A DNA stretch of 64,000 nucleotides from Calditrichales bacterium (GTDB taxonomy: Bacteria > Calditrichota > Calditrichia > Calditrichales > J004): NCBI GenBank assembly GCA_965267575.1, contig OZ254086.1, forward strand, positions 480,001-544,000, read 5' to 3'. The notes under the pieces are model-generated. The model was not told the origin of the DNA. It saw only the letters and a program-made list of their open reading frames with translations, and did no database searches. The first letter of the stretch is position 1. The number at the start of each line of letters is the position of its first letter. Positions 13,869-57,092 of this stretch are shown here, one piece after another. The position numbers and the translations under genes were made by a program.

Positions 13869-14758
13869 GGAAGTTGAAGTCGTCCGCTTTTAACGAGGTT
13901 CCCGTCCAGTACAAAAATCCGGATATCATTGCCGCTTTGCATCAGGGCCACATCTTGCGGCGCAGAAAGGGAATCCGCGAAATGCAATGCTTTAATCTCT
14001 TTACCGTCTTTGGAAACCCTGAAAACACGGCCCGCGGCGGGATCAGCCACAAACAGGCCCTGATTCGGCCCCACAGCCAGCCCGCGAGGACGTTGGAATT
14101 CCGGAGCACTAATCTTGCGCAGAAAACTGCCAAAAAGATCAAACACGACAACAGCCTTTTGCGGCGGATCGGAAACAGCCAACCGGTCAGCACCCCACAT
14201 ATCAAGCTGTTCGGGCGTATCCAGCTCGCCGGCGCCGGAGTCAAAACGGCCAAAGGCCTGCTCCGCTTCCAGGTTGCGGTTAAATTTCACAATTTTATAC
14301 TCTTCGTGGTCCAAAACGAAAAGGTCGTTCTGCGAAGTCACAACAGCGCTGGCCACTTCGCCAAATGTATATTGCTGCTCAATGGCCGGGTTACTGCCAA
14401 AGCTGGAAATCAGGTTCATCTGGCGATCGTAACGCTGCAGGCGGCGGTTATAATAATCGGAAACGTAAATATTATTCACGGAGCGCACCCAGATATCGCG
14501 CGGCGAATCAAACTGATCGGGCTGAAAACCAAAACCGCCAATACTTTTAATGTAGCTGCCATCCGCTTCAAAAAGCTGTATACGGTGATTACCCGTGTCC
14601 ACGACATAAATTGTCCCCGAAGGTGAGACATCAATTGCCAGCGGTTCATTGAACTGTCCCGCCTTGTTGCCAAAACCGCCCCAACTGCGCATATCGGTCA
14701 CGATCTGCGCAGCCGCTAAGCCAATGAAAATTATGAGGATAGATACAGTTTTGATCAT
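13865..14758 (-). CDS. NHL-repeat (6-bladed propeller) secreted protein
   Basis: Repeated GQFNEP..I.V...IYVVDTGNHRIQ units; 4-nt overlap with downstream gene. Confidence 0.9.
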   Translation of the reverse strand: MIKTVSILIIFIGLAAAQIVTDMRSWGGFGNKAGQFNEPLAIDVSPSGTIYVVDTGNHRIQLFEADGSYIKSIGGFGFQPDQFDSPRDIWVRSVNNIYVSDYYNRRLQRYDRQMNLISSFGSNPAIEQQYTFGEVASAVVTSQNDLFVLDHEEYKIVKFNRNLEAEQAFGRFDSGAGELDTPEQLDMWGADRLAVSDPPQKAVVVFDLFGSFLRKISAPEFQRPRGLAVGPNQGLFVADPAAGRVFRVSKDGKEIKALHFADSLSAPQDVALMQSGNDIRIFVLDGNLVKSGRLQLP

Positions 14759-40141: not shown

Positions 40142-40882
40142 CTAACCCTGCGCCCATGTATCGATTAACCTTCGCATACGCTGGTAATGGCTGCCTTGCC
40201 AATAGACCTTGCCACATGAGCCGCATTGGTAAAATTTATCATAATATTTTTTGGTGAGCGGCTCGAGTCTGTGCAGGACATCCTTTTTAGCCACCTCCTC
40301 AATCAGACCGTTGCAGACCAGGCAGCGATGCATCGGCTGGATAAGGTTGCGCAGGTCGAAGCGGCGCAGAACTTCCTCCACCTGGTCACGGGGGTCGGGA
40401 GAACGCACCCAGTAGCCGTGCGTGATCACGCGGTGGTGCAGCAGTTTGCGGTCGTGGGTTAAAACCGCGCGACGGCCCTCCACAGAAAGCTCCACGATCT
40501 CGGCATCTCTGTAATCATTGCGATACAGGGTATCAAAACCGAGCATGCGCAGATAGCGGGCCAGCTTGCCCAGGTGCACATCGCAGATAAAGCGCGGGTC
40601 ACGCAGCGGCATTTCGCGCAGTTTCACCAGCGAAGAGATATCCAGGCTTTCAAACATCGGGTAAACGGCCACGCGGTCTCCATCCTGCAAACGGTAATCA
40701 AAGCCCACGGACTCGCCATTAACGACAATCAGTTCCACCTCCGTATGCGGCACGCCCAGCGCCTCAATGGGGTCTTTTATGGAAGGGCTTTCTTCAAAAG
40801 TGTACTCAATGTCCTTTTTCTTTTGCTGTTGCGGCAGGAAATCATTGAGCTCTTCGTAAAAGCGGAAAGTAGCGTTAAACAA
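40142..40882 (-). CDS. Ub-Mut7C + Mut7-C (PIN-like) RNase with Zn ribbon
   Basis: FRFYEELNDFL...LGVPHTEV; DVHLGKLARYLRMLGFD; RCLVCNG, CGSCGKVYWQGSH. Confidence 0.93.
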   Translation of the reverse strand: MFNATFRFYEELNDFLPQQQKKKDIEYTFEESPSIKDPIEALGVPHTEVELIVVNGESVGFDYRLQDGDRVAVYPMFESLDISSLVKLREMPLRDPRFICDVHLGKLARYLRMLGFDTLYRNDYRDAEIVELSVEGRRAVLTHDRKLLHHRVITHGYWVRSPDPRDQVEEVLRRFDLRNLIQPMHRCLVCNGLIEEVAKKDVLHRLEPLTKKYYDKFYQCGSCGKVYWQGSHYQRMRRLIDTWAQG

Positions 40883-41083: not shown

Positions 41084-41566
41084 TTAGTCACGGTAGTTTT
41101 CGAATTGCAGGGGTATGTCCAGGTTAGCGCCTTTAAGCATTTGGATTACTTCCTGCAGGTCGTCGCGTTTTTTGCCGCTTACACGCACCTTATCACCCTG
41201 GATGGAAGCCTGAACCTTCATTTTCGTATCACGGATCATCTTGCTGATCTTTTTGCCCGTTTCGGTTTCGATGCCCTGCTGCAGGGTAAGCTCCTGGCGC
41301 GCGCCTTTGCCCGATTCATGGATTGGGCCGGGCTTGATGAACTTCAGGTCCACATTGCGTTTGCTCAGCTTGGAACGCAGGATGTCCAGCATTTGCTTCA
41401 CCTGGAATTCACTGTCGGCCTGCAAATTGATGACACCATCGGCGATGCTGTATTCGGCGTTACTGCCTTTGAAATCAAAGCGGGTGGTCACTTCCCTGTT
41501 GGCCTGGTCCACGGCGTTGCTTACTTCGTGCATGTTCGGTTCGGAAGCGATGTCAAACGACGGCAT
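41084..41566 (-). CDS. yajQ: YajQ family nucleotide/c-di-GMP-binding protein
   Basis: MPSFDI...NAVDQ...RFDFKG...VRVSGKKRDDLQ...NYRD; start at 41566 after GGAGGA. Confidence 0.97.
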   Translation of the reverse strand: MPSFDIASEPNMHEVSNAVDQANREVTTRFDFKGSNAEYSIADGVINLQADSEFQVKQMLDILRSKLSKRNVDLKFIKPGPIHESGKGARQELTLQQGIETETGKKISKMIRDTKMKVQASIQGDKVRVSGKKRDDLQEVIQMLKGANLDIPLQFENYRD

Positions 41567-41596
41567 TGTTATCCTCCTTTTTTGCGATCTTTTCAG

Positions 41597-41628
41597 CAAA
41601 ATTAAAGCAGAGGCCGCACATGTACAAA
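41597..41628 (-). promoter_or_regulatory. Bacteroidota-type promoter TTTG-N20-TAATTTTG for yajQ
   Basis: Consensus match 30 nt upstream of the start codon. Confidence 0.6.
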
Positions 41629-41757
41629 TCATGCACACTTAGTAATGTAACAATCCGACAATACTTTTGGCTATTTAGCCCTGTTTGACATTTATCAAGG
41701 TTTGGCATGTAAGTTGATGCTAAGGAGAGCCAAAAATTGCACAATGAGGGAGCAGGT

Positions 41758-43181: not shown

Positions 43182-44075
43182 TTATTTGATTAAGAGCATC
43201 TTTTCTGAAAGTCTTTGTATTCCATTTGATAAAACATAATAATAGACACCGCTGCTAACTTCCTCTCCGGCTTGATTGGTACCGCGCCAAATCAGCGCAT
43301 GGTGACCTAAATTGTAGTGCCTTTTTCCAAAACTAAAGACTTCCCTTCCGATAACATCAAAAACAGCAACTTCTACTTCCTGAGGCTTTTGCACGCTAAA
43401 TTTTATTTTTGTACTACTATTAAAAGGATTGGGGCTGTTTTGATACAATGCTATGCCAGATGGAACAGACTTAGAGTTCATGCTAATAGATGTTACAAAG
43501 GTGGTATCGCCAAATAGCTGACTATCGATATAAGCGCCTCTCAATGTTTCATATCCTCCAGCTTCGTAGTACTGTTCATAGATACCTAAATTCTCAACAA
43601 GCCAAATTCCGTGAGCCACTAAACCAATCTTATTGTAAATAATGTTTTTTTGATCATTTTCATTAAATACATCGCTTACTTCCCAATAGCCGCCCCATGG
43701 ATCTTCAGGATCAGGAAAAGTGTCACCTTCAGCAACGTCAAGTTTTAGAAAAAAGCGCTCTTTTTCTTCGTAGAGACTTTTACTGTATACATCACTGCTC
43801 AAGCTATCGATTCTCCAAAATATGCTGTCTTCATCATACATATCATAAAAGATTTGCTTACGCTCAATAGTAAAATAATATCTATTGTTAATTATTGTAT
43901 CACTTATAACCTTTTTATATTCAGTTGCCACTAAAACTCCGCCGGAGCTGCGCTCTTCATAGACCCATAAGTCTCCTTGATTAAGTGGGAACATTTTTTC
44001 CCATTCATTGCTCTGAGCCCATGCGCTTTTTAATAGGCCAACTATGCACAGTAAACATGCAAACAGTCTTAACAT
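43182..44075 (-). CDS. Secreted protein with T9SS/FlgD-Ig-like C-terminal domain (AT-rich)
   Basis: Signal peptide AWA-Q; FPLNQGDLWVY; LYQNSPNPFN...WRGTNQAGEEVSSGVYYY...KMLLIK. Confidence 0.88.
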   Translation of the reverse strand: MLRLFACLLCIVGLLKSAWAQSNEWEKMFPLNQGDLWVYEERSSGGVLVATEYKKVISDTIINNRYYFTIERKQIFYDMYDEDSIFWRIDSLSSDVYSKSLYEEKERFFLKLDVAEGDTFPDPEDPWGGYWEVSDVFNENDQKNIIYNKIGLVAHGIWLVENLGIYEQYYEAGGYETLRGAYIDSQLFGDTTFVTSISMNSKSVPSGIALYQNSPNPFNSSTKIKFSVQKPQEVEVAVFDVIGREVFSFGKRHYNLGHHALIWRGTNQAGEEVSSGVYYYVLSNGIQRLSEKMLLIK

Positions 44076-44726: not shown

Positions 44727-47618
44727 TTACTCGTATTCTTCCATCGGGGGGCAGGCGCAAACCAGGTTGCGGTCGCCGTAGGTGTTATCCACACGGGCCA
44801 CCGCCGGCCAGAATTTATTAAAGCGGATATAATCGGCCGGGAAGGCAGCCTGTTCGCGGCTGTATGCGTGGTCCCAATTATCCGACGTTACCTCTTCGGC
44901 GGTATGCGGCGCGTTTTTCAGCACATTGTCTTCCTTATCCGCCTTGCCCGCGGCGATTTCCTGCATCTCATTATAGATATGAATTAAGGCGTTGCAGAAG
45001 CGATCCAGCTCTTCGCGCGATTCACTTTCTGTGGGCTCGATCATCATCGTGCCGGGTACGGGCCAGGAAACGGTAGGCGCGTGGAAGCCGTAATCCATCA
45101 GCCGCTTGGCGATATCCTCCACCTCCACCCCGGCTTCCTTGCGGAAACGGCGCAGGTCAATGATCATCTCATGCCCCACGTGTCCGTTCCTGCCGGCATA
45201 CAGCACATCGTAGTGGCCCTTCAGCCTTTCCTTAATATAATTGGCGTTTATGATGGCCTGTTCGGTCGCGGCACGCATACCGTCACCCCCCAGCATCAGC
45301 ATGTAGGCGTAGGAGATCAGCAGGATGCTGCTGCTGCCAAAAGGCGTAGCGGAAATGGCACTGATCGCCTTTTCGCCCCCGGTTTTTATAACCGGGTGTC
45401 CCGGCAGGAATGGCGCCAGGTGCTTGGCCACGGCGATCGGTCCCATGCCGGGTCCGCCTCCGCCATGCGGTATGCTGAATGTTTTATGCAGATTGAGGTG
45501 GCAGACGTCCGCGCCGATCACGCCCGGGCTGGTCAAACCAACCTGCGCGTTCATGTTGGCGCCATCCATATAAACTTGCCCGCCGTGTGTATGGATAATG
45601 TCGCAGATCTCGCGAATATCCTCTTCAAACACACCGTGCGTGGAAGGATAGGTGATCATCAGCGCTGCCAGGTTTTCCATGTGTTTTTCTGCCTTGGCCT
45701 TCAAATCGGTTACATCAACGTTGCCATTCTCGTCGCATTTCACGCTTACGATCTGCATGCCGGCCATATTGGCGCTGGCCGGGTTGGTGCCGTGCGCGGA
45801 AGTGGGCACCAGCGTGATGTTGCGCTGCGTTTCGCCGCGGTCTTCAAAGTAGGCGCGGATTACCATAAGCCCGGCATATTCGCCCTGCGCGCCGGAATTA
45901 GGCTGCAACGAAACGTCATCCAGACCGGTAATTTCACGGATAATGCGGCGCATATCATCTATCACCTCGGTGTAGCCGGCGGCCTGGCTCTGCGGTATAA
46001 AGGGATGCAACTGCCCGAATTCCGGCCAGCTTATCGGCAGCATCGCCGTGGCGGGATTCAGCTTCATCGTGCAGGAACCCAGCGGTATCATCGATGTGGT
46101 CAGCGAAAGGTCGCGGCTCTCCAGGCTCTTTATGTAGCGCATCATCTGCGTTTCCGAGCGGTGCATGTGAAAAACGGGATGTGTAAGGTATTCAGACGAG
46201 CGCTGCAGATCGTGCGGCCAGCTTAGTTCAACATCTTTTTCAAATTCAGCATCGTCAACCTGTGGCGCAGTGGCAGACGCCGCTTCGGCAAAAACGGCAA
46301 TCAAATCGCGCATGTCATTAAAGGAGACTGTTTCATCCAGTGACACGGTCAGATGCGTTTCATCCACGGTGCACAGGTTAATTTTATTGTCCGCGGCGAT
46401 CTTGTGAACCTTTGAGATCACCAGCGGCTTTGCTTTGATATTGAGTGTATCAAAATAGTTATCATTAAGCTGCTCATAGCCCATTTCCTTAAGGGCCTTT
46501 TCCAGGATGACCGTGTACTGGTGTACGCGCGCGGCAATACGCTTCAGGCCGTCCGGGCCGTGGTAAACACCATACATGGAAGCCATAATCGCCAGCAACG
46601 ATTGCGCTGTGCAGATGTTGGACGTGGCCCGCGCCCCGCGGATATGCTGCTCGCGTGTCTGCAGCGCCATGCGGTAGCCGTTGTTGCCCAGCCTGTCTTT
46701 GGAAACACCGATAATGCGTCCCGGCACTTGGCGCACAAAATCCTCGCGGGTGGCAAAAAATCCGGCATGGGGACCGCCGTATCCCGGTGGCACGCCAAAA
46801 CGCTGCGAGCTGCCAACCACAACGTCGGCGTCCCACTCGCCCGGAGGCGTAAGCAGGGTCAGCGCCAGCAGATCGGCCGCAAGGGCAACGCGCGCTTCGC
46901 TCTTGTGTGCTTCTTTGATCAGATCCGCATAATTCTCAATGCGCCCGTCGCGGCAGGGGTATTGCACCATGGCGCCAAATACATCATCAGAAAACGAAAA
47001 TTCCTTGTGCGGCATAACTTCAAGCTTAATGCCCAGCGGCACGGCGCGGGTTTTTAAAACAGCCAGTGTTTGCGGAAACAGATCTTCCGAAGCCAGGAAA
47101 ATGAGCGCGTCGTTTTTAACCTGCTCGCTGGAGCGCAGGCGGTAAAGCATGGTCATTGCTTCGGCGGCGGCTGTGGCCTCATCCAGCAGCGAAGCATTGG
47201 CCACTTCCATGCCGGCCAGATCGATCACCATCGTCTGGTAATTGAGCAATGCTTCCAGCCGGCCCTGTGCTATTTCCGCCTGGTAGGGTGTGTACTGCGT
47301 GTACCAGCCGGGATTCTCAAGTATGTTTCTGAGGATAACGCTGGGCGTGATGGTATTGTAGTAGCCCAGCCCGATATACGATCGGAAAAGCTTGTTTTTA
47401 GCGGCGATTTCCCGCGCCTTTTTAAGAAATTCAAATTCAGTGATGCCCGGCTCCAGATCCAGTTCTTTTTTTAGCCTGATACCCGCCGGCACGGTCTCGT
47501 CGATAAGCTTTTCCATGGAAGACACACCGATCGCCTGCAGCATTTCGCGGCGCGTTGCCAGGTTGGGGCCCAGGTGCCTTTTCAGGTATTCATGATGTTC
47601 GGCAATATTGATGGCCAT
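44727..47618 (-). CDS. gcvP: Glycine dehydrogenase (glycine cleavage P protein, single chain)
   Basis: YTPYQAEIAQGRLE, ATSNICTAQ, HLNLHKTF PLP-Lys, GDRNLVCACPP. Confidence 0.98.
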   Translation of the reverse strand: MAINIAEHHEYLKRHLGPNLATRREMLQAIGVSSMEKLIDETVPAGIRLKKELDLEPGITEFEFLKKAREIAAKNKLFRSYIGLGYYNTITPSVILRNILENPGWYTQYTPYQAEIAQGRLEALLNYQTMVIDLAGMEVANASLLDEATAAAEAMTMLYRLRSSEQVKNDALIFLASEDLFPQTLAVLKTRAVPLGIKLEVMPHKEFSFSDDVFGAMVQYPCRDGRIENYADLIKEAHKSEARVALAADLLALTLLTPPGEWDADVVVGSSQRFGVPPGYGGPHAGFFATREDFVRQVPGRIIGVSKDRLGNNGYRMALQTREQHIRGARATSNICTAQSLLAIMASMYGVYHGPDGLKRIAARVHQYTVILEKALKEMGYEQLNDNYFDTLNIKAKPLVISKVHKIAADNKINLCTVDETHLTVSLDETVSFNDMRDLIAVFAEAASATAPQVDDAEFEKDVELSWPHDLQRSSEYLTHPVFHMHRSETQMMRYIKSLESRDLSLTTSMIPLGSCTMKLNPATAMLPISWPEFGQLHPFIPQSQAAGYTEVIDDMRRIIREITGLDDVSLQPNSGAQGEYAGLMVIRAYFEDRGETQRNITLVPTSAHGTNPASANMAGMQIVSVKCDENGNVDVTDLKAKAEKHMENLAALMITYPSTHGVFEEDIREICDIIHTHGGQVYMDGANMNAQVGLTSPGVIGADVCHLNLHKTFSIPHGGGGPGMGPIAVAKHLAPFLPGHPVIKTGGEKAISAISATPFGSSSILLISYAYMLMLGGDGMRAATEQAIINANYIKERLKGHYDVLYAGRNGHVGHEMIIDLRRFRKEAGVEVEDIAKRLMDYGFHAPTVSWPVPGTMMIEPTESESREELDRFCNALIHIYNEMQEIAAGKADKEDNVLKNAPHTAEEVTSDNWDHAYSREQAAFPADYIRFNKFWPAVARVDNTYGDRNLVCACPPMEEYE

Positions 47619-47784
47619 TACGATAGTCCCTTCGTTTTTTAGCGCTTACATTTTTGCTGTATAAAACACTATCTAATTTAACACGATCAACATTCTTTAG
47701 AAACTCCCGCACAAAATTCCCGCGCTTTTTTCTGTGCTTTGAATTCGTGTAAATCACATTATAACGTTTATAAAAATAAAATAT

Positions 47785-47815
47785 TTTGAAGTTGGACAAT
47801 CGGCCTGTATTTTTG
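47785..47815 (+). promoter_or_regulatory. Bacteroidota-type promoter TTTG-N19-TATTTTTG for the ATPase/kinase operon
   Basis: Consensus match about 65 nt upstream of ATG 47881. Confidence 0.5.
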
Positions 47816-47880
47816 CGACTATTCCTTTTGACTGCTTGGCGTATGGCAGGGAGCTTCCAAATTTAACCTGGCAATTACCC

Positions 47881-50211
47881 ATGTTTAAACCTATTGCTAA
47901 TCCGTACATCGTCGGTAACCCCATAAAAACGCAGGACATGTTTTATGGCCGTGAGGATGATTTTGAATTCATCCGGCGCAAGCTTGAGAGCGGCGGCAAA
48001 AGCTACATTATCGTTTTATGCGGAGAACGCCGGAGCGGCAAGACCTCCATTTTATTTCAAATTCTGAGCGGCCGTCTTGGTGATAATTTTGTACCGATCC
48101 TGATTGACATGCAGACCATGGCCGGGCTGAAGAACGAAATGGAGTTTTTCGAAAAGTTCGCCCAGGAAACCGCCAAATGCCTGAAAAGTGACAGCGGCGT
48201 TAATTCCGATATTTTCAGCACGTCCGAAGACAGCTCCTACAAAACATTCTCCGGATTCCTGGAGGACATTCACAAAGCCTACCCCGGCAAGCATATTCTT
48301 TTTCTGATCGATGAATACGAGATTATTGAGGCCAAAATCGAGGAAGGCAGCCTCAGCGAAAACTTTATCCCCTACCTGGCCGGCATTCTCGAAAGCGAAA
48401 AGCTAGTCTCGTTTATCTTTACCGGCTCCAGCCGGCTGGAAGACCGTAAAGTCAGTATCTGGCACATCCTGTTTGGCAAATCGCTGTTCCGCAATGTGAG
48501 CTTTCTGACGCGGCCCGATACGCTGCGCCTGATCACGGAGCCGGTTGAAGGCCAGATTACTTATGACGCGGAAGTGCTGAATACGATTTACCGTATTACA
48601 TCCGGGCAGCCTTTTTACACGCAGGTGGTTTGCCAGAATATTGTTGATTACGTCAACCAGCAGCGCAAAACCCATATCCAGTTGGAAGACCTGGAAGTGA
48701 TCGTCAACGAAATACTGGACAACCCGCTGCCGCAGATGATCTATTTCTGGAACAGCCTGAGCGACGACCGCAAACTGGTTTTATCGCTGCTGGCTGAGAT
48801 CCTGGAAACGCAGGACTCCTATATCACCGCGGAAGAGATCATCAAAGAATCCAAACGCCGCAAGTTTGGATTGGAACTGACCCTAAAGGCGATCAACACT
48901 ACGCTTGAGACGCTGTATCATAACAAACATGTTTCCAAGGGCCAGCACGGCTACAATTTCCAGATGGACCTTTTCCGGCGCTGGATTAAACGCGACCATG
49001 CCATCTGGAGGGTGATGAAGGAGGTCAGCAGCCTGGGCCAGGCATCGTCTGTAGTGAGTCAGGTTTATGAACCGGGCGCAGAAAAGCCGGCAGGCGGCGG
49101 GGCTAAAAAAATATTAATGATTGTATTGCCGCTGCTGCTCGTAGCGGTGGTTGCCGGCTGGTGGCTGATGCAGCCGGGAGACGACGCACAAAGCGAGCCT
49201 ATTGGCCAGGCCGGCGAAACAGAAGAAATGAGCGCTTCAAATGATATGGATGCTCAACAGCAAGCGGAAACACCACCGCCACCACAAGAAACACAGCAAC
49301 AGGAAGCTGAACAACAGCCCGAAGCCCAAAAGAAACCGCTGGCCACAGAAGCATCCGAAGTGAAACGTCCGGCAGAGCGGCAGCGCCAGACGGCACGCAA
49401 TACGCAGCAGGAAGCACAGGCACGTCGCGACGCCCAGGCCCGTGAGGACGCGGTTTCTGCCAGGCAGGCCGCCCAGGATGCACGCACTAAGGCACAACAG
49501 GCCGGAGCCGACCAAAACGCAGCGGATGTGTTTGGACAAGCCCAAAGCCGCGAACGTCAGGGAGACGCCGCGCTCGGTTCGGCCCAATACGAATCGGCCA
49601 TAAGCCAGTACAATGATGCAGCCCGATTGTATAACCAGGCTGTTAGCGGCGCCGCCCAGGCGCTTAACGATCTGCGCGCGCAGGCCGATCAGCTCAAACA
49701 ACAGGTCAGCTCGGCCAAATCCGACGCCAGCGCCGACTACAACAACATCCCGGTATTCCGCCAGGCTTTAAAAGATGAGGCAAGCGCAGACAGGCAGTTG
49801 GAAAGCGGCAATCCGCAGGAGGCCATAAACAGCTACCGCTCGGCTTTACAGAGCCACGAGCAGGCCCGCTCCGAATACGCCGCCAAACGTCTTGGCATCA
49901 CCAAAGCGATCACTGCCTACCTTAACGCCATTGAAGAAGAGAGCATTACCAAGATGAGAAACAATCATGCCAACTTTAATGAGAGCCTGGAGAGCGACTG
50001 GCAGCGATTGTTTGATTTTGCTAACAACATCCGTGTCGGCCGCACAATACAGTCTATAAAACTGCAGGCAGAAGACGCCGCCAGCGCCACCGTGGAGGTG
50101 GACCTCCTTTTTGACGGCGCTGACCGTAACCAATCCAAAAATATCTGGAAGATGGAGCTCAACGAACAGGGCTCACGCTGGGTTATCAGCAATATTTCTG
50201 AAAATCGCTGA
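47881..50211 (+). CDS. STAND-like P-loop ATPase + single TM + exported helical and NTF2-like domains
   Basis: NPYIVGNP, FYGRE, Walker A GERRSGKT, Walker B LIDEYE, SGQP; TM at 49111-49170; Q/E/A-rich linker; start set at ATG 47881. Confidence 0.85.
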   Translation: MFKPIANPYIVGNPIKTQDMFYGREDDFEFIRRKLESGGKSYIIVLCGERRSGKTSILFQILSGRLGDNFVPILIDMQTMAGLKNEMEFFEKFAQETAKCLKSDSGVNSDIFSTSEDSSYKTFSGFLEDIHKAYPGKHILFLIDEYEIIEAKIEEGSLSENFIPYLAGILESEKLVSFIFTGSSRLEDRKVSIWHILFGKSLFRNVSFLTRPDTLRLITEPVEGQITYDAEVLNTIYRITSGQPFYTQVVCQNIVDYVNQQRKTHIQLEDLEVIVNEILDNPLPQMIYFWNSLSDDRKLVLSLLAEILETQDSYITAEEIIKESKRRKFGLELTLKAINTTLETLYHNKHVSKGQHGYNFQMDLFRRWIKRDHAIWRVMKEVSSLGQASSVVSQVYEPGAEKPAGGGAKKILMIVLPLLLVAVVAGWWLMQPGDDAQSEPIGQAGETEEMSASNDMDAQQQAETPPPPQETQQQEAEQQPEAQKKPLATEASEVKRPAERQRQTARNTQQEAQARRDAQAREDAVSARQAAQDARTKAQQAGADQNAADVFGQAQSRERQGDAALGSAQYESAISQYNDAARLYNQAVSGAAQALNDLRAQADQLKQQVSSAKSDASADYNNIPVFRQALKDEASADRQLESGNPQEAINSYRSALQSHEQARSEYAAKRLGITKAITAYLNAIEEESITKMRNNHANFNESLESDWQRLFDFANNIRVGRTIQSIKLQAEDAASATVEVDLLFDGADRNQSKNIWKMELNEQGSRWVISNISENR

Positions 50212-50243
50212 ACATAATAAATCCAAATTAGGGGGAGGTTTTT

Positions 50244-51557
50244 ATGCGCGTGTTACGCTATTTCACGGGTTTTGTCATGCTGTTTGCAATCCCGGCATCC
50301 CTGCAGGGGCAAACGCTGCAAGACCAGTTGGAAGGTATTTTCGAAGAACTGCTGAGCGTAAGCCTGGAAGGCAGTCCCGGCGCCCACGGCGAACACTTCA
50401 AGCCATCTAACGTGGCCAACAGCGGGCGCATTATCAGCAGCCTGAATAATTTCATTAGCAGCAGTGTATCCAATTTCCCGCTAAGCTCCACGGTGGCCGG
50501 TGTTACGTTCGATTTTTCCAGCGGCCGTCCGGTCAGTACTTCTACAAGTCTGGGACCTATTTTTGCCGAGCGTGCGCAAACCATCGGGCGCAACCGCATT
50601 AACTTCGGCTTCAATTTCTCGCACATCGATTTTACAAAAATCCGCGGCCTGGACACGGAAGACGTGCGCCTCACTTTTATCCACCAGGATGTGGGCAACC
50701 CCGGCCTTGGCGATTCGCCGTTTGAGTTTGATACCATTGAGCTTTTCCTCAATCTTAAAATCCGGGCGACGGTGTTTGCTTTTTTTACCACCTACGGTAT
50801 AACGGACAGGCTTGATGTTGGCGTGGCCATACCCTTTGTAAATGTGCGTCTGAAAGCGGACCCGCTGGCGATTATGGATAGCTACACCTATCTGGCAACA
50901 GGTCAGGCTTTCCATAATTTCGGGGGCACAAGTGAAGAACCGCAGCTAACAACCCGTCCCGCATCCATCGCCGATGACGCCACGGGAATCGGTGACATCG
51001 CGCTGCGCCTGAAATACAACATCCTGCGCGACAAAGGCGTGGATCTGGCAGCCCTGGCCGAATACCGTTTGGATACAGGCGAGGAGCCGGACTTCCTCGG
51101 CACCGGCGACGACCGTATTCGCCTGATGCTGGTGGCCTCCAGAGTGCTGGGCGATTTCGCGCCGCATATTAATCTTGGATATGAAATTAAGACAGGCGAA
51201 CTGGACCGCGATGAAATCGATATTTTTATCGGCTATGACCAGAAGCTTTCCGAGTCCCTGACGCTGGCCGTTGATTTTCTTGGAGAATATCAGATTGGCG
51301 AAGCAAAAGCGGAGCGGGAATTCCCGGAGCCCATCACAATAGAACCGGACGGGCTTCCGACGACCAGTTACGTCAAGCGCGTTAGTTTTACCAATATTCC
51401 GGATTTTGAAAGCGACCATAATGTAAACGGCTCGGTGGGTTTTAAATTCAGTCCCAAGGAATCGCTGATGATCATCGGTAACGCCATTGTGCCGTTGAAC
51501 GACGGCGGGTTGCGCGCGGATGTAATCCCCACGCTGGGCTTTGAATTCAGCTTCTGA
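50244..51557 (+). CDS. Outer-membrane beta-barrel protein (MetA/phenol-degradation transporter-like)
   Basis: Signal peptide; ERAQTIGR, GITDRLDVGVAIP, GIGDIALRLKY; C-terminal LGFEFSF beta-signal. Confidence 0.8.
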   Translation: MRVLRYFTGFVMLFAIPASLQGQTLQDQLEGIFEELLSVSLEGSPGAHGEHFKPSNVANSGRIISSLNNFISSSVSNFPLSSTVAGVTFDFSSGRPVSTSTSLGPIFAERAQTIGRNRINFGFNFSHIDFTKIRGLDTEDVRLTFIHQDVGNPGLGDSPFEFDTIELFLNLKIRATVFAFFTTYGITDRLDVGVAIPFVNVRLKADPLAIMDSYTYLATGQAFHNFGGTSEEPQLTTRPASIADDATGIGDIALRLKYNILRDKGVDLAALAEYRLDTGEEPDFLGTGDDRIRLMLVASRVLGDFAPHINLGYEIKTGELDRDEIDIFIGYDQKLSESLTLAVDFLGEYQIGEAKAEREFPEPITIEPDGLPTTSYVKRVSFTNIPDFESDHNVNGSVGFKFSPKESLMIIGNAIVPLNDGGLRADVIPTLGFEFSF

Positions 51558-51566
51558 GAAAGGCGA

Positions 51567-52634
51567 ATGGAAAGCGCAATCCTGCAACCGATAAAAGAGC
51601 CGGCTCAGTTATTTGGCCGCGGCTCGCTGGTAAATAAAATCTATGCGCGCATCGGCGCCGCCCGTCCGCAATCGGTTTCGCTTGTGGGCGATTGCAAAGT
51701 GGGCAAAACCTCCCTCCTGCTTTGCCTGGCCGCGAAAGAGACGTGTGCGCGCATGCTGCGGCGGCCCGAAGATTATGCGATCGTTTTCCTCTCAATCAGT
51801 GAGCTGAAAATAAAAAGCGTGGATGCCTTTGTTCAAAATTTACATAAGGCCATGCAGCCGCATTTGCCGGGTTCGAATGAGCTTTCGGCAAACGACAATC
51901 GTTACGACTGGTTTAAAAAAGCCGCCGAGGAATTTACGCAGCAGGGCAAAAAGATTATCCTCTTTTTTGATGATTTTAACCTGATCACTCAAAACGAGGA
52001 ATTTCCGCTTGAATTTTTTTCGTTTCTGCGCTCCGTGGCCAACAACTACAACGTGGCATACGTCACCACATCTTACCTTGATCTGCAGAAATTGTGCGTA
52101 TCCAAAGACGTGGAAGAATCACCCTTTTTTAATATTTTTACCAACATGATGATTAAAGGACTGGACAAAAACGACGCCAACGATCTTATGCAGGCAAAGC
52201 TGGACGGAATCAGTGAAACGCAGCGCGACAAGCTGTGGGCGCTTTGCGGCGGATTCCCTTACCTGATCAAGTTGGCCTGCGCCGCTTCCCGCGAAAAAAA
52301 CCTGCCACCCGATGACGAAGCATTTGAACGGGCTTTTTACAAACAGTCCAAGTCTTTTTTTGCGTTGCTTTGGGAGCGATTTGAAAGCGAGCACCGTCAT
52401 ATTCTGGAAAAAGTCGTGCGCGGCCAGAAGATCAATCCCCGGCAACATTATCTGCTGCATGATCTGGAACGCAAGGGTTACGTATACAGCAACGGCAAGC
52501 CAACGCTTTTCTCCCCGGCCTTTGCCAATTTTATAGCCGAGATCCGAAATATCGGCGTGCTTTCCGACTCTTCTCCCATGGGCCTGTTGAAGCGTATCTT
52601 TCAACGTATCCGTTCCACCTACAGGACGGCCTGA
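51567..52634 (+). CDS. Stand-alone STAND-like (AAA-like) ATPase
   Basis: LFGR, Walker A GDCKVGKT, Walker B FFDDF, SPFFNIF, GGFP. Confidence 0.85.
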   Translation: MESAILQPIKEPAQLFGRGSLVNKIYARIGAARPQSVSLVGDCKVGKTSLLLCLAAKETCARMLRRPEDYAIVFLSISELKIKSVDAFVQNLHKAMQPHLPGSNELSANDNRYDWFKKAAEEFTQQGKKIILFFDDFNLITQNEEFPLEFFSFLRSVANNYNVAYVTTSYLDLQKLCVSKDVEESPFFNIFTNMMIKGLDKNDANDLMQAKLDGISETQRDKLWALCGGFPYLIKLACAASREKNLPPDDEAFERAFYKQSKSFFALLWERFESEHRHILEKVVRGQKINPRQHYLLHDLERKGYVYSNGKPTLFSPAFANFIAEIRNIGVLSDSSPMGLLKRIFQRIRSTYRTA

Positions 52635-55318
52635 TGATAGGCAAGCAGTTATCACACTACCGCGTTTTACAAAAGATCGGCGAGGGTGGCATGGGCGAAG
52701 TATATCTGGCCGAAGATGTCAACCTGATGCGCAAGGCCGCGGTTAAAGTTCTTTCCCAGAAAACGGGCTATAAGGAAGAATTTAAGCGCCGCTTTAAGCT
52801 GGAAGCGCAAGCCGTGGCCGCACTTAACCATCCCAATATCGTTACGATTTACGAGCTGGGCGAGGATAATGACACGCCCTTTATCGTAATGGAATATGTC
52901 GATGGCCGTTCACTACGTGAGATATTGCATAAGCGCAGCAAGCTGAGCCTGGACGAAGCGCTGAATTATGCCTGCCAGGTCTGCGAAGGACTTACCAAGG
53001 CGCATTTTGCCGGCATTATCCACCGTGACATAAAGCCTGAAAATATTCTCATTGACAAGGAAGACCGTGTCAAGATACTTGATTTTGGCCTGGCCAAACT
53101 GCGCGGCAGCAACAGTAACATCACCAGGGAAAGCACCCGCGTGGGCACGCTGAAATACATGTCGCCCGAGCAGGTGCAGGGCCATGAGCTTGACCCGCGC
53201 TCTGACATCTTTTCACTGGGCATCATCTTGTATGAATTGCTGACCGGCCACATTCCGTTCAAGGGTGACTATGATGTGGCCATCCTCTACTCCATTAGCC
53301 ACGATCCGCCCGTGCCGCTGCGCGAACGTTTGGCCGACGCACCGGAGGTACTGGAGCAGATCATACAAAAGGCGCTGAAAAAAGACCCGGCTCAGCGCTT
53401 TCAGACGGTTGGCGAAATGCAGGACGAATTGATCCGTGTGCGCCAGGGCCGGGCGCAGGGTCGCGGCCAGGAAAGCAGCCTCAACTCGCCCAGCAAAGGC
53501 ATTGAGGAATTGCTGGAACATCGTGAGAAAATCGACAAGCTCATTGAGACACGCTATAAACGCGAAGTAGTGATCATGTTTGCCGACATCGCCGGTTCCA
53601 CGCAGTTTTTTGAGAAGCGCGGCGATATTGAAGGCCGGGCGATGGTACAGCGCTTTAACCGCCTCATGTTCCCGATCATTGAAGACCACCAGGGAGCCGT
53701 AATTAAAACCATGGGCGACGGCATTATGGCCTCTTTCGGCGACCCCGTCGCGTCCTGCCGCTGCGCCATCCGTATGCAACAATTGCTTTTTACGGACAAC
53801 AGCGCCCGCCTGGAAGACGATCAGATCGCCATGCGCGTGGCCCTGCATTTTGGCCGTGGCGTGATCGAAAAGGGCGATGTCTACGGCGATGTGGTCAATG
53901 TGGCGGCGCGCGTTGAGAAACACACCGAAGCGGGCACGATTGTGATGTCGCAATCGCTGTACGAAAAGGTAGAAGATGATGAAGCTTTCCGCTGCGGCTA
54001 TCAGGGCACGTTCAGCGTAAAGGGCAAATCGGAGCCGCTGGCACTGTACCGCCTAAGCTGGAGAACAGAAGAGAGTGGTGATGAGCCTGATGAAGGCCTA
54101 AAAGCAATCGCCGCAGAACCGGACAAAACAAGCCCGCCGCCACCGCCGCCGGCAAAAACAGAATCGTCCTATGAAGAAGTGGTACAGCCCGGTTTCCGGC
54201 TGACGCGTCCCTATAAAACGCCGCCCGCACCCGACGCCGAGACGCGCCACGACGCCATGCACGGCAACCCATACATGAATCGCGTCATGATCCGCAATGC
54301 CGATGAGTTTTACGGCAGGGAGCCGGAAGTAAGAAAAATTTACGCGCGCATCGGTTCTTCGCGTCCGCAATCAGTATCGGTTGTGGGCGAACGGCGCATT
54401 GGTAAGTCGTCCCTGTTGCACTATGTTTACAGCCACGAAAACCGGCGCCATTTTCTGCTAAATGCCGACGAGTATGTGATGGTCTTTGTCGATTTCCAGG
54501 AAAAGCGCGGCATCGGCATTCCGGAATTTTTTAAAACGATCCAGGAAAACCTGCTGAAAGAATTCCGCGGCACATTTACCATAAACCTTGATCCGGGCTA
54601 TGAGACATTCAAGCGCACGGTGAGTTTTCTGGAAGAGCAGGAGCTGAAGCTTGTGCTGGTTTTCGATGAATTTGAGCTGGTAACGCGCAACGATCGCTTT
54701 GACGCCGAATTCTATTCGTTCCTGCGCTCGATGGCCAATAATCATAATGTGGCCTATCTGGTAGCATCGGGCCGCAATCTGCAGACCATGTGCCACAGCC
54801 GTGAAATTTCCGATTCACCGTTCTTTAATATTTTTTCCAACCTGACGCTGAGCCAGTTTACGCACAAGGAAGCCGCGGAACTGATCACCGAGCCGGCGCG
54901 AAAGGCCGGAGTAAACCTGGAAGCGGAAGTACCGTTTGTCATCGATCTGGCCGGATACCATCCCTTTTTTATCCAGATGGTGTGCGCCTCGCTGTTTGAG
55001 TATGTGCGCGATAAGCGGCCGCTGGACAAGGAAGTAAAAAGCAACGTGCAGGAAGAATTTCTCGATGAGGCGCGGGTGCATTTTCAGCAAATCTGGGAAG
55101 TGTGTGATGAAGACACGCGCGAAATCATGCTGCTCCTGGCCCAGGGCAAAAGGCCAGATCCCAGCCGCGAGTACCTGGTGCAGGAACTTAGCAAAGCGGG
55201 CTATATCCGCGAGGAAAAAGGCAAACCCTTGCTGTTCTCCTCGCTCTTTGCCGACTACATCAGTGAGCGCTATCTGCCCGGCGGCAAAAAGAAAAAGCGG
55301 CGCTTTTGGCCGTTTTAA
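52634..55318 (+). CDS. Ser/Thr kinase - class III adenylate cyclase - STAND-like ATPase fusion
   Basis: GEGGMGEVY, AVK, HRDIKPEN, DFG, SPE; FADIAGST, IKTMGDG, GDVVNVAARV; GERRIGKS, VFDEFE, SPFFNIF, GYHP. Confidence 0.93.
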   Translation: MIGKQLSHYRVLQKIGEGGMGEVYLAEDVNLMRKAAVKVLSQKTGYKEEFKRRFKLEAQAVAALNHPNIVTIYELGEDNDTPFIVMEYVDGRSLREILHKRSKLSLDEALNYACQVCEGLTKAHFAGIIHRDIKPENILIDKEDRVKILDFGLAKLRGSNSNITRESTRVGTLKYMSPEQVQGHELDPRSDIFSLGIILYELLTGHIPFKGDYDVAILYSISHDPPVPLRERLADAPEVLEQIIQKALKKDPAQRFQTVGEMQDELIRVRQGRAQGRGQESSLNSPSKGIEELLEHREKIDKLIETRYKREVVIMFADIAGSTQFFEKRGDIEGRAMVQRFNRLMFPIIEDHQGAVIKTMGDGIMASFGDPVASCRCAIRMQQLLFTDNSARLEDDQIAMRVALHFGRGVIEKGDVYGDVVNVAARVEKHTEAGTIVMSQSLYEKVEDDEAFRCGYQGTFSVKGKSEPLALYRLSWRTEESGDEPDEGLKAIAAEPDKTSPPPPPPAKTESSYEEVVQPGFRLTRPYKTPPAPDAETRHDAMHGNPYMNRVMIRNADEFYGREPEVRKIYARIGSSRPQSVSVVGERRIGKSSLLHYVYSHENRRHFLLNADEYVMVFVDFQEKRGIGIPEFFKTIQENLLKEFRGTFTINLDPGYETFKRTVSFLEEQELKLVLVFDEFELVTRNDRFDAEFYSFLRSMANNHNVAYLVASGRNLQTMCHSREISDSPFFNIFSNLTLSQFTHKEAAELITEPARKAGVNLEAEVPFVIDLAGYHPFFIQMVCASLFEYVRDKRPLDKEVKSNVQEEFLDEARVHFQQIWEVCDEDTREIMLLLAQGKRPDPSREYLVQELSKAGYIREEKGKPLLFSSLFADYISERYLPGGKKKKRRFWPF

Positions 55319-55337
55319 AGTATTAGCATATCAAGAT

Positions 55338-55419
55338 CGTCATCCCGGCCCAAGCGCCGGGATCTCTTTTCTTTGGAACTATAGATCCCGGTGTGACAAA
55401 AATGCCACCATGGATGACG
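55338..55419. repeat. Inverted pair of CGTCAT-CC REP-like palindromes between convergent genes
   Basis: CGTCATCCCGG...CCGGGATCTC (55338-55366) and AGATCCCGGTG...GGATGACG (55383-55419). Confidence 0.75.
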
Positions 55420-55442
55420 CTTTTTTGTTTTTAGCGAAAGGC

Positions 55443-57092
55443 TTACTCCCTCTCAAAAACAATTTCCCCGCCAACTACCGTCATCAGCACATTTACATCA
55501 CGTATTGTTTCCGGCGCTATCTCAAACAGGTTTTGATCCAGCATAACGAAATCGGCCAGTTTGCCCTTTTCCAGGCTGCCAAGGCGGTCCTCATCGCGAG
55601 CAGCATAGGCGGCATTGATGGTGTGGGCCTGAAGCGCCTGCTCTACGCTGATCTTTTGCTGCGGCAGCCAACCGCCGGGATTCTTATCGTCCAGTGTACG
55701 ACGCGTAACGGCGGCATAGATCGTCTCCAGCGGTATGGGCGGCGCCACAAACCAGTCGCTGCCAAAAGCCAGTTTTGCGCCTCCATCCAGCAGGCTTTTC
55801 CAGGCAAACGATCCTTCAAGCTGCTTGTCGCTTAAAATCTTACCTGCCCAGCGCCCGTCATCGATGGCGTGATATGGCTGCACGCTGGCAATTACGCCAA
55901 GTTCTCCAAAACGCCCTGAATCAGCGGAGCCCACATGCTGGGCATGTTCTATGCGCATGCGCCTGTCACGCGGCGGATTTTCCTGCTGCACCTGCTCAAA
56001 AATATCCAGCAAAATGTGAATAGCACGGTCACCGATGGCGTGGATTACCGGCTGCAGCCCGGCGCGGTCACCGGCCATAATCCAGTCGCGCATGTTCGTT
56101 GTGTCGTTTACAAACAGACCCGTATTGTCGGGTTTACCCCGGTAAGCGTCAAAAAAAGCGGCCGTTTGCGAACCGAGGGAGCCATCCATAAAACCTTTTA
56201 AGCCTCCCCAGTGCAGCCATTCGTCACCGGAACCGTTTTCCGCCACAAACTGCTCCAGTCGCTGCCAGCCCAAAAGTGGCACGGAGGCGTAGATGCGCGT
56301 TTTCAGCAAACCTTTTTCCTGGGCGCGGCGGAAAAAATGCAGCTGGTCCCAGGAGCCCATATGATGCACCGCCGTTACGCCGTGGGAAGCGACATAATTC
56401 ATGGCGGCTTTCAATGCGCGCTCGCGGTCCTCTTCCGTCGGGTTCGGTACGTGTGGCCAGATCAGGTCCATGGCGTTATCCTTTAATACGCCGGTTAAAG
56501 CGCCGTTCTTGTCGCGCACGATTGTTCCGCCCTCCACGTCGGGTGTTTGGGTGGTAACACCGGCCAGTTGCAAAGCGAGGCTGTTGGCCAGGGCCATATG
56601 TCCGTCGAGACGGCTTACAAAAACGGGGTGCTCCGGCGTCAGGCTGTCGATCCAAATGCGGTTGGGCAATTCGCCGCCCCAGCGTTCATGGTCCCAGTCA
56701 CCCCCGGTAATCCAGGTGCCGGGCGGTACGGTTTTGGCAAAATCCGCAATGCGTTTGCTGAATTCTTCTGGTGTTGCCGCGTCGCGTAGCTGCACCGAGG
56801 CCAGACGAAACCCGCCTTCCATAAAGTGTACGTGGCTGTCAATAAAACCGGGCAGCAGCATCCGGTCCTGCGCCTCGATAATACGCGTACTGTCAGTTAT
56901 CAGCGCGGAAATCTCTTCGTTGCTGCCCAGGGCGATTATGCTGTCACCACTCAAAGCCATGGCCTGCGCCTGCGGCTGCTGTGGGTTGCCCGTCCATATA
57001 TTGGCGCTTAAAACAACCAGGTCCGCTTTTTGACCCATTGTGCATCCTCCAACTGCTAAAGCAATCGCTAAAAAAAGAAAAGAAACACGCAT
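55443..57092 (-). CDS. Amidohydrolase_3 (YtcJ-like) lipoprotein
   Basis: PGFIDSHVH, KGFMDGSLG, HAIGD, RIEHAQ, FGSDW; lipobox VGGC; start adjusted to 57092. Confidence 0.93.
   Translation of the reverse strand: MRVSFLFLAIALAVGGCTMGQKADLVVLSANIWTGNPQQPQAQAMALSGDSIIALGSNEEISALITDSTRIIEAQDRMLLPGFIDSHVHFMEGGFRLASVQLRDAATPEEFSKRIADFAKTVPPGTWITGGDWDHERWGGELPNRIWIDSLTPEHPVFVSRLDGHMALANSLALQLAGVTTQTPDVEGGTIVRDKNGALTGVLKDNAMDLIWPHVPNPTEEDRERALKAAMNYVASHGVTAVHHMGSWDQLHFFRRAQEKGLLKTRIYASVPLLGWQRLEQFVAENGSGDEWLHWGGLKGFMDGSLGSQTAAFFDAYRGKPDNTGLFVNDTTNMRDWIMAGDRAGLQPVIHAIGDRAIHILLDIFEQVQQENPPRDRRMRIEHAQHVGSADSGRFGELGVIASVQPYHAIDDGRWAGKILSDKQLEGSFAWKSLLDGGAKLAFGSDWFVAPPIPLETIYAAVTRRTLDDKNPGGWLPQQKISVEQALQAHTINAAYAARDEDRLGSLEKGKLADFVMLDQNLFEIAPETIRDVNVLMTVVGGEIVFERE

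Follow-up and report, generated by a model that had tools for sequence, protein, structure and literature searches.

A 64,000 nt stretch of the genome of a Calditrichales bacterium (contig OZ254086.1, positions 480,001 to 544,000; G000:C1:480001-544000, here called the window and lying within a single 4.73 Mb contig) harbors a compact operon that encodes a membrane-anchored nucleoside triphosphatase (NTPase), an outer-membrane β-barrel, a stand-alone NTPase and a fusion of kinase, cyclase and NTPase. The question raised by this locus is what these four proteins do together. The genes, named g1 to g4, are plus-strand open reading frames (ORFs) at 47881-55318 which, as calculated from their coordinates, are spaced by 32 nt, by 9 nt and by a one-base TGATG overlap:

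47881..50211, plus strand: g1, membrane-anchored receptor-type NTPase, 776 amino acids (aa); based on Pfam, an AlphaFold2 (AF2) model, Foldseek and motifs
50244..51557, plus strand: g2, outer-membrane β-barrel, 437 aa; based on Pfam, an AF2 model and Foldseek
51567..52634, plus strand: g3, stand-alone nSTAND2 NTPase, 355 aa; Pfam nSTAND2 1.7e-28
52634..55318, plus strand: g4, effector NTPase with kinase, cyclase and nSTAND2 module, 894 aa; based on Pfam and catalytic motifs

An earlier reading of the same DNA (the original prediction) had described four co-oriented, tightly spaced genes, and its coordinates and all three spacings were confirmed. Since the four-gene order is kept in two related genomes and its parts recur across phyla, the ORFs are real and did not arise by chance. 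We propose that the operon encodes a transmembrane, possibly trans-envelope, receptor-NTPase signaling system that would activate a kinase and a cyclase by nucleotide-dependent co-assembly, and give this reading a probability of about 0.5.

g1 is a membrane-anchored NTPase of the Orc/STAND type

Translation of g1 starts with the ATG at 47881; an in-frame TTG is present upstream at 47836, yet homologues start at the ATG-encoded MFKPI.... The protein lacks a signal peptide. In the AF2 model, obtained from a 40-row alignment with a mean predicted local distance difference test (pLDDT) score of 77.3, a cytoplasmic Orc/Cdc6-STAND-like ATPase with winged helix (aa 1-385) is followed by a transmembrane helix (aa 409-429), a disordered, Pro/Gln-rich linker (aa 432-500), a confidently modeled periplasmic helical bundle (aa 502-685) and an α+β cone with the modeled secondary structure of an NTF2-like domain (aa 689-774). 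Lys residues precede the transmembrane helix and acidic residues come after it, and the model is consistent with an N-in, C-out topology, in agreement with the order of ATPase, transmembrane helix and exported domain described before. For the last 117 residues (aa 660-776) the nearest Atlas clusters were Cds6_C NTF2-like at 0.88, which is under the 0.9 bar and serves as a lead only; the NTF2-like assignment rests on this match and on the modeled secondary structure.

The STAND / Orc-Cdc6 clade of AAA+ ATPases is defined by a P-loop domain, a helical domain, a winged helix and a GxP motif. All three domains were modeled in g1 (aa 25-385, pLDDT mostly 70-92), and the same three-part fold was recovered by Foldseek. 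Matches to the whole g1 model were dominated by ATPases and comprised Orc1 (2v1u, E 1.2e-08), Cdc6 (1fnn), NRC4 (9cc8) of the plant NRC resistosomes, CED-4 (2a5y) and the archaeal ATPases 2qen and 2fna, with modest template modeling (TM) scores of 0.4-0.5 by target. In Pfam, g1 reached 29.2 bits for ATPase_2, under the cut-off of 33.2, and also matched AAA_14 and AAA_22, while no nSTAND2 (PF20702) match was obtained at E<=0.01. When the nSTAND2 module of g4 was used as query in phmmer, most g1 homologues were matched at about 1e-4 to 1e-18. By these sequence comparisons the g1 ATPase is a distinct sister family of the g3/g4 nSTAND2 modules, homologous to them at greater distance. FxGR, Walker A, Walker B and GxP are found in all three NTPases; the claim of one P-loop module shared by three proteins therefore stands for the motifs, but has to be modified for g1, which belongs to the sister family and not to nSTAND2.

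The invariant motifs of g1 are NPYIVGNPI, GERRSGKTS, DEYE, GQPFYTQ and NPLPQM. The first of them (window 47881-47950, g1 aa 5-23) is located just ahead of the FxGR box, is invariant in 14/14 aligned g1 homologues from several phyla and yet modeled with very low confidence (pLDDT below 50). It may serve as a peptide onto which a partner subunit docks.

g3 and g4 carry nSTAND2 modules, and the catalytic motifs of g4 are intact

g3 is a bare nSTAND2 module with GDCKVGKTS as Walker A and FFDDFN as Walker B motif. Among 29 stand-alone nSTAND2 homologues GK[TS]S and DDF[HN] are kept, the latter being a STAND-like DD Walker B. A sequence search of g3 against chains of the Protein Data Bank (PDB) gave nothing significant (best E 0.12), and none of the 66 matches of a pattern search for relatives from g3 alone was confirmed. 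g4 is composed of three domains, the cyclase and the nSTAND2 module being joined by a Pro-rich linker:

52658-53407, plus strand: g4 aa 9-258, Ser/Thr kinase; Pfam Pkinase 3.8e-60
53558-54034, plus strand: g4 aa 309-467, class III nucleotide cyclase; Pfam Guanylate_cyc 1.3e-20
54359-55147, plus strand: g4 aa 576-838, nSTAND2 module; Pfam nSTAND2 2.2e-50

The description of g3 as a stand-alone ATPase and of g4 as a kinase-cyclase-ATPase is borne out by these Pfam assignments. The Hanks-type kinase of g4 is intact (Gly loop, VAIK Lys, HRD, DFG and SPE kept), as is the cyclase, in which two metal Asp, one Lys, Asn and Arg are kept; we take this Lys to be the adenine-specifying position of class III cyclase motifs. 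Class III cyclases work as dimers. The NTPase of g4 has the Walker A motif GERRIGKSS, present in 51/57 effector-type homologues, and the Walker B motif VFDEFE. In an alignment of the window protein with 53 kinase-cyclase-nSTAND2 homologues (54 rows), HRD was found in at least 49 rows and DFG in 49; for the cyclase, the FxD[IV]xGST-type motif was kept in at least 36 (variants listed), KTxGD in at least 50 and NxxxR in at least 41, and GERRIGKSS was present in 48.

Among the 120 closest effector-type nSTAND2 proteins, 57 are kinase-cyclase proteins, 52 have a kinase only and 7 a cyclase only; the remaining four comprise two SpoIIE/PP2C and two RND/SecDF-type transporter fusions. No nuclease, protease or TIR family was present in the precomputed Pfam lists of these 120 proteins, nor was a pore-type effector family found among them. 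The transporter fusions (P0167, P0168; PF00873, PF02355) are about 1450 aa long and the phosphatase fusions (P0185, P0238; PF07228) about 600 aa, and both widen the output repertoire of the nSTAND2 clade of g4. As the genome encodes 12 domains that bind cyclic nucleoside monophosphates (cNMP), besides 4 class III cyclase domains, it does possess readers of a cyclic nucleotide.

The gene set is conserved across phyla with exchangeable sensors and outputs

An identical four-gene order was found in G007 and G004, two genomes of the same family, with protein identities to G004 of 51%, 61%, 43% and 54% for g1 to g4. Relatives of g1 number at least 584 in a set of 5.8 billion proteins, and its first 385 residues match 1082 representatives of 50%-identity clusters at E<=1e-30. 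Scanning species-representative genomes with an alignment of g1 homologues yielded 205 confirmed loci, 80 of which were kept and underlie the following counts. These loci belong to Calditrichota, Spirochaetota, Acidobacteriota (mostly Blastocatellia), Cloacimonadota, Krumholzibacteriia, Desulfobacterales and others. An nSTAND2 gene is located near the g1-type ATPase gene in 63/80 loci from several phyla (median gap 593 nt); 8 of the 17 loci without such a neighbor end within 1.5 kb of g1. The four genes, placed in one operon by the original prediction, are a conserved unit, and a lack of co-occurrence elsewhere, which would have refuted that prediction, was not observed.

Three layouts recur. 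In Calditrichota, g1 is followed by the barrel gene, an optional g3 and the gene for the kinase-cyclase-nSTAND2 protein. In spirochaetes (15 loci) a g1 with PEGA domains precedes a gene for a protein of ~305 aa, a g3-like gene and one for a cyclase-nSTAND2 protein. Blastocatellia and others (32 loci) encode a receptor protein of ~1400 aa, with N-terminal signal anchor, immunoglobulin (Ig)-like domains, Reg_prop propellers, a transmembrane helix and a C-terminal g1-type ATPase, followed by an nSTAND2-kinase. From these recurrent layouts it follows that the g1-type ATPase is always cytoplasmic and membrane-adjacent. It is about 50% identical across phyla, in contrast to the variable extracytoplasmic part, which is NTF2-like in Calditrichota, PEGA in spirochaetes and FGE-sulfatase or TPR elsewhere. 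The extracytoplasmic part is thus swapped freely, on either sequence side of the ATPase. The output is exchanged as well, being kinase, cyclase or both across the loci. Among the seven other Calditrichota loci that reach the effector gene, g3 is present in four and missing in three, and is dispensable. The Calditrichota form is the fullest version seen, with kinase and cyclase on one protein and a large FapF-like barrel.

Some loci show additional genes. In Blastocatellia, a PPDK_N protein of 645-680 aa (PEP/pyruvate-binding, ATP-grasp) is encoded immediately ahead of the g1-type gene and in the same orientation (L052:5000-6934, L062:4907-6853, L045:3180-5219); the gene in L052 ends 4 nt before the g1-type gene, and in L045 a GGDEF protein is encoded in between. 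It is possible that the PPDK_N protein belongs to the system, either as an additional component or as a substrate. In one Calditrichia locus g1 is preceded by an additional gene for a stand-alone Ser/Thr kinase (L054:8035-9558), and the effector of this locus (L054:14189-17812; 1208 aa) has two kinase domains and only a weak cyclase match. At a Deferribacteres-labelled locus (L021:11968-20217), one of nine that have downstream room and no nSTAND2 partner, the g1-type gene is followed by ORFs of 239 and 2487 aa.

Unrelated outer-membrane proteins occupy the second gene position

g2 has a signal peptide, an N-terminal helical region and a C-terminus ending in ...EFSF. It matches Pfam Phenol_MetA_deg (PF13557) with 25.4 bits, above the cut-off of 22. 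The AF2 model, made from an 8-row alignment, has a pLDDT of only 70.5. By Foldseek it resembles FapF (5o65, E 1.2e-14), a COG4313 channel (4rl8, E 1.1e-10, TM score by target 0.69) and FadL; matches to FapF and COG4313 barrels range from E 1e-14 to 1e-10 with TM scores by target of 0.62-0.69. A profile match above the gathering score together with the barrel fold places g2 among the COG4313 / Phenol_MetA_deg channels, and the β-barrel with C-terminal Phe that had been predicted is supported by the sequence end, the model and the Foldseek matches. g2 shares the barrel fold and the PF13557 match with FapF and COG4313 channels (5o65, 4rl8), but is only 11-14% identical to them, is about 150 residues longer and forms part of an NTPase operon. 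Neither fap genes nor genes for the degradation of aromatic compounds were found near g2.

A barrel gene follows g1 in 9/9 Calditrichota-type loci with room downstream and is missing from Blastocatellia loci. The spirochaete gene-2 protein of ~305 aa has a signal peptide, is TPR-like in its N-terminal half and ends in a sequence of the ...FANLxIYxFFTF type. No Pfam family was assigned in 4/4 of these proteins; one was placed near porin/OMP_b-brl_2 Atlas clusters (0.96 by features, TM 0.47 by structure), its C-terminal 165 residues matching small outer-membrane protein barrels at TM scores of 0.7-0.77 by target. As a homologue of g2 the spirochaete protein was rejected, because hhalign against the g2 family gave a probability of 2.8%, and it is treated as analogous. 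That two lineages have unrelated outer-membrane proteins at gene position 2 is, among the comparative data, what argues best for a connection of the system with the outer membrane.

The barrel gene of G007 (L009:6600-8200, G007:C50; also L011:6791-8137) contains an in-frame stop (...SG*FNMGF...) and reads as two ORFs, which reflects either a pseudogene or an assembly error. The L019 barrel gene and the L016 g3-like gene are likewise split into two overlapping ORFs.

Proposed mechanism

In our proposal g1 would be the receptor, spanning the inner membrane in a system that probably reaches the outer membrane. The helical bundle and NTF2-like domain, held on a long flexible linker, would sense a periplasmic or outer-membrane cue, possibly through g2, upon which the juxtamembrane Orc/STAND-like ATPase would shift its nucleotide or oligomeric state. 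It would then co-assemble with the homologous nSTAND2 module of g4 and, where present, with g3 as an accessory subunit. Co-assembly would bring the kinases of g4 together for trans-autophosphorylation and its cyclases together to form the dimeric active site, and the output would be protein phosphorylation and a cyclic nucleotide, probably cyclic AMP (cAMP), that feeds cNMP-binding proteins. The analysis itself shows the structure of the genes, their domains, a model of the topology, the conservation of the gene set and of the catalytic motifs, the exchange of sensors and outputs, and the movement of the cassette as a block. All physical interactions, the direction of signaling, the ligand and the physiological role are what we infer, and so are the relay through a hetero-oligomer and the clustering of kinase and cyclase put forward in the original prediction. 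In this mechanism we follow the example of STAND and Orc-type switches, together with the idea of a hetero-multimer proposed for nSTAND2 operons (PMC8195603).

Comparison with described systems

The closest described relative is the nSTAND2 two-gene operon, the family's only published treatment and a prediction only (Kaur, Iyer, Burroughs & Aravind, eLife 2021; PMC8195603); statements about this article and the one discussed next refer to the available parts of their text. These operons were predicted to be mobile counter-invader systems that form toroidal hetero-multimers, as implied by a conserved arginine finger in both nSTAND2 proteins. The effector-bearing nSTAND2 module has eroded NTP-binding motifs, and the effector is usually a GT4 glycosyltransferase or a HEPN RNase (PMC8195603). 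The operon in the window resembles this system in its adjacent nSTAND2 genes g3 and g4 with a variable output domain attached to one module, in being mobile (12/86 genomes; at a different site in G004/G007, which is empty here) and in hetero-oligomeric NTPase assembly as the proposed principle. Unlike in PMC8195603, the effector-bearing module of g4 keeps its Walker motifs, all P-loops are intact, and kinase, cyclase, PP2C or transporter domains serve as outputs instead of GT4/HEPN. A third, membrane-anchored NTPase with extracytoplasmic domain and an outer-membrane protein are added here, of which the main-text passages of PMC8195603 make no mention.

NTPase switches joined through a transmembrane segment to extracytoplasmic PEGA/NTF2-type domains occur in the iSTAND ternary and GAP1-N2 GTPase conflict systems (Kaur et al., eLife 2020; PMC7159879), whose membrane-proximal NTPases are combined with transmembrane and PEGA, OmpA or NTF2 domains; these systems are also modular, with cyclases among the associated domains. 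They differ from the present operon in using an inactive STAND with MoxR-vWA, or GTPases, and in having neither paired nSTAND2 proteins nor an outer-membrane barrel in the text consulted. The authors of PMC7159879 read the external domains as peptidoglycan-associating effector parts and not as sensors.

The combination of Ser/Thr kinase, class III cyclase and P-loop oligomerization module in g4 is shared with NCBIfam TIGR03903 (TOMM system kinase/cyclase fusion protein), but the NTPase of g4 is nSTAND2 and not of the AAA_16/TPR type. TIGR03903-type proteins act as soluble regulators encoded by a single gene and have no membrane receptor as partner. The same logic, a cyclase joined to a P-loop oligomerization module, is seen in mycobacterial cyclase-STAND-HTH regulators. 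Assignment of g4 to TIGR03903 itself was rejected, as it reached 180.1 bits against a cut-off of 705.75 and matched over the kinase-cyclase part only (aa 34-447); a PknB-type kinase was likewise ruled out on curated cut-offs. Hybrid two-component sensors with periplasmic Reg_prop propellers join a large sensor through a transmembrane helix to a transmitter in the cytoplasm. In Blastocatellia, g1-type proteins resemble them in their large periplasmic Ig and Reg_prop sensor, transmembrane helix and cytoplasmic transmitter, but this transmitter is an Orc/STAND-like ATPase with an nSTAND2-kinase instead of a histidine kinase with receiver domain.

No paper on this architecture was found in literature searches, beyond whose scope lay subscription journals and supplementary files; the wider searches brought up two articles of the Aravind group, preprints on ParA-like NTPases and on defense, and unrelated work. 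No NCBIfam model at cut-off, and no equivalog, was obtained for the four proteins. The architecture had been called unnamed in the original prediction: no characterized system matches it in PADLOC, NCBIfam or the literature, but the paired nSTAND2 core had already been predicted (PMC8195603, as far as its available text goes). We regard the operon as a new form within the predicted nSTAND2 multi-NTPase kind, to which it adds a transmembrane receptor NTPase, an outer-membrane partner and pure signaling outputs.

Evidence bearing on a signaling role and alternative explanations

Binding of the periplasmic part of g1 to the g2 barrel is hinted at by a complex prediction of g1(500-776) with g2(22-437), which scored 0.52 compared with 0.08 for the best of three controls; the runs shared at least 63% of contacts, with partner pLDDT of at least 76. 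The mark used was reached by 58/80 solved complexes and 2/110 mismatched pairs, and at scores of 0.60 or below only 7/80 solved complexes passed, together with both passing mismatches, so that a pass in this range is more often wrong than right unless the pairing is likely beforehand. The suggested complex of barrel and periplasmic domain thus outscored its controls, and yet this is weak support for binding. Several observations weigh against a receptor-NTPase signaling system. Nine g1-type loci have downstream room and lack an nSTAND2 partner, and the operon is linked neither to a reader gene nor to one for a substrate.

Further points of this kind come from distribution and mobility. The g1 ATPase is patchily distributed, being present in 12/86 Calditrichota genomes (5/53 high-quality ones). 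In G004 and G007 the four genes and a glucose/sorbosone dehydrogenase (GSDH) gene sit between an SDF symporter gene and PilZ. In the genome studied here, SDF (81% identity to the orthologue) and PilZ are adjacent and only 88 nt apart, leaving an empty site (L091:8034-9867, G000:C1:587034-588866; compared with the occupied L012:8458-19008), while the cassette is located beside gcvP, about 52 kb away. The cassette moves as a block between chromosomal sites. Neither an integrase nor flanking repeats were seen at the SDF-PilZ site, where no search aimed at either was made. The cassette proteins are 43-61% identical to those of G004, most flanking orthologues 65-81%. Patchiness, mobility and greater divergence are also typical of defense cassettes.

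These properties are shared with an nSTAND2-type counter-invader system, directed against phages or plasmids, in which NTPase and barrel would detect envelope perturbation, phage adsorption or injection, the NTPases would assemble, and kinase and cyclase would cause growth arrest or act on a downstream effector. g3 and g4 belong to the Pfam family nSTAND2, whose paired operons are predicted to be counter-invader systems (PMC8195603, available text), and PMC7159879 describes, in the parts consulted, conflict systems of membrane-proximal NTPases with transmembrane and PEGA or NTF2 domains. The patchy occurrence (12/86 genomes), the movement as a block that leaves an empty site and the divergence beyond most flanking genes fit such a role, and the kinase of g4 matches PADLOC families for PD-T4-6 (1.3e-103) and mad6 (2.8e-85). 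However, all listed matches lie within the generic kinase domain (aa 1-302). In PADLOC-DB v2, g1 and g2 match no family (0 each) and g3 only at E 0.003-0.007 (best 0.0029), and no system-level match was obtained for the four-gene operon beyond this kinase domain (models including PD-T4-6, MADS mad6 and Mokosh MkoA). The PADLOC comparison to which the original prediction had pointed thus returned no known defense system.

The genomic context argues in the same direction. The operon is flanked by metabolic and housekeeping genes in the window, and housekeeping flanks were found at 13 of 14 sampled loci as well: among their 132 flanking ORFs, clear defense-type neighbors (HepT-like, PIN, AbiEi) were present beside L022 only. 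Three sampled Blastocatellia loci (L045, L052, L062) have common flanks and are syntenic: upstream of each lies a PPDK_N gene, and the genes on the other side encode FeoB, poly(A) polymerase, cytochrome c and a class II tRNA synthetase. The g1 ATPase is spread over 7/8 Calditrichota families with one copy per genome and no paralogue expansion. Nuclease, protease, TIR and pore-type families are lacking among the 120 closest effector proteins, and the effector-bearing NTPase g4 is not the inactive one, unlike in the system of PMC8195603 (available text). Taken together, a counter-invader role is the main rival of the signaling reading but rather unlikely, and the hint at Avs and anti-phage proteins made earlier for this locus is not favored by gene context or effector range.

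An envelope transport or secretion module, with g2 as a channel for a hydrophobic compound or polypeptide, gated or energized by g1 in a TolA/TonB-like manner and with g4 only reporting flux, is a much less probable explanation. In its favor, g2 is structurally closest to the amyloid secretion channel FapF and to COG4313 and FadL channels for hydrophobic compounds; in g1 the linker is Pro-rich, the helical part in the periplasm is long and a sub-threshold TolA match is present (15.3 bits, cut-off 59.45), and the nSTAND2 relatives P0167 and P0168 are fused to RND/SecDF-type transporter domains. The barrel, however, is lineage-specific, being replaced by an unrelated small outer-membrane protein in spirochaetes and by none in Blastocatellia loci, whereas the invariant partners are signaling-enzyme NTPases, and no conserved cargo gene lies beside the operon. 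Moreover, we know of no way in which an ATPase of the Orc/STAND type that lies in the cytoplasm and is anchored by a single transmembrane helix could energize an outer-membrane channel. That the genes are functionally independent neighbors (a general Ser/Thr kinase-cyclase regulator, two orphan ATPases and an unrelated porin in one operon), for which the lack of g3 in 3/7 related loci and the nine partnerless g1-type loci could be quoted, is highly improbable and already disfavored by the order and tight spacing kept in related genomes despite 43-61% protein identity, by the joint movement of the four genes and by the linkage of g1 to nSTAND2 genes across several phyla (63/80 loci).

A receptor-NTPase signaling system is favored by the PADLOC and NCBIfam negatives, the housekeeping flanks, the signaling enzymes as outputs, the kept Walker motifs and the cNMP-binding domains.

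Boundaries of the operon and other features of the window

The operon is bounded by the following features:

44727-47618, minus strand: gcvP, divergent from g1; Pfam GDC-P 8.6e-194
47619..47880, no strand: AT-rich intergenic spacer of 262 nt common to g1 and the divergent gcvP, presumed operon promoter region
55342..55363, plus strand: terminator-like hairpin 24 nt past the g4 stop codon; 8 pairs, 6 of them G-C, T-rich tail

Sigma-70-like matches in the spacer are weak only (47753-47782 fits 9/12). Among 13 terminator-like sites in 47400-55600, a number not above the shuffled-sequence expectation (mean 11.3), the hairpin at 55342-55363 has the most G-C pairs (6) and is the likely end of the operon. 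A weaker hairpin is present on the minus strand at 55418-55404. The REP (repetitive extragenic palindromic) pair that had been proposed at this end was not substantiated: it is better described as these two hairpins, only scattered copies of its 8-mer were found, and no REP family was demonstrated. Downstream of the hairpin at 55342-55363 lies a convergent amidohydrolase gene, which was discarded as a synteny anchor, its matches being 35-38% identical and probably paralogues.

Elsewhere in the window, a gene for a WYL/HTH_11/WCX regulator adjoins those for a DinB_2 protein and a small ORF without family (8685-9650 and 7700-8167, minus strand). WYL regulators are frequent neighbors of defense or DNA-damage modules. 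An ORF of 1165 aa (10374-13868, minus strand) has no Pfam family at E<=1e-8 and is translationally coupled to a gene for an NHL-repeat β-propeller protein (13868-14758, minus strand). A Mut7-C RNase fused to a ubiquitin-like Ub-Mut7C domain is encoded at 40145-40882 (minus strand) and adjoins a DUF520 (YajQ-like) gene at 41087-41638. Just beyond gcvP, a low-GC stretch (0.38-0.41) contains a gene (43182-44075, minus strand) for a protein with a type IX secretion C-terminal sorting domain (CHU_C / Por_Secre_tail).

Implications for bacterial signal transduction

In immunity, cell death and transcription control, STAND/NLR-type ATPases are known as switches that act in the cytoplasm. If a receptor-NTPase signaling system is indeed encoded here, a STAND switch would be wired to an extracytoplasmic sensor, and in diderms to an outer-membrane protein, and would drive second-messenger and phosphorylation outputs. 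We tentatively suggest, at clearly less than even odds, that g1-type proteins are the receptors of a general, so far unrecognized mode of transmembrane signaling, in which the juxtamembrane Orc/STAND-like ATPase is controlled by an extracytoplasmic sensor and nucleates a hetero-oligomeric nSTAND2 'signalosome' with kinases, cyclases or phosphatases, and in which a dedicated barrel co-receptor in diderms, among them Calditrichota and spirochaetes, would give a trans-envelope relay with phosphorylation and cAMP as output; on the same tentative footing, this mode would stand beside histidine kinases, receptor Ser/Thr kinases, chemoreceptors and membrane cyclases. The proposed system would add a receptor class to bacterial signal transduction, and a sizeable one (1082 cluster representatives, 205 loci), and would provide a simple modular model of enzyme activation by proximity through NLR-like oligomerization. 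The Calditrichota form, in which all parts are intact, is a good candidate for reconstitution.

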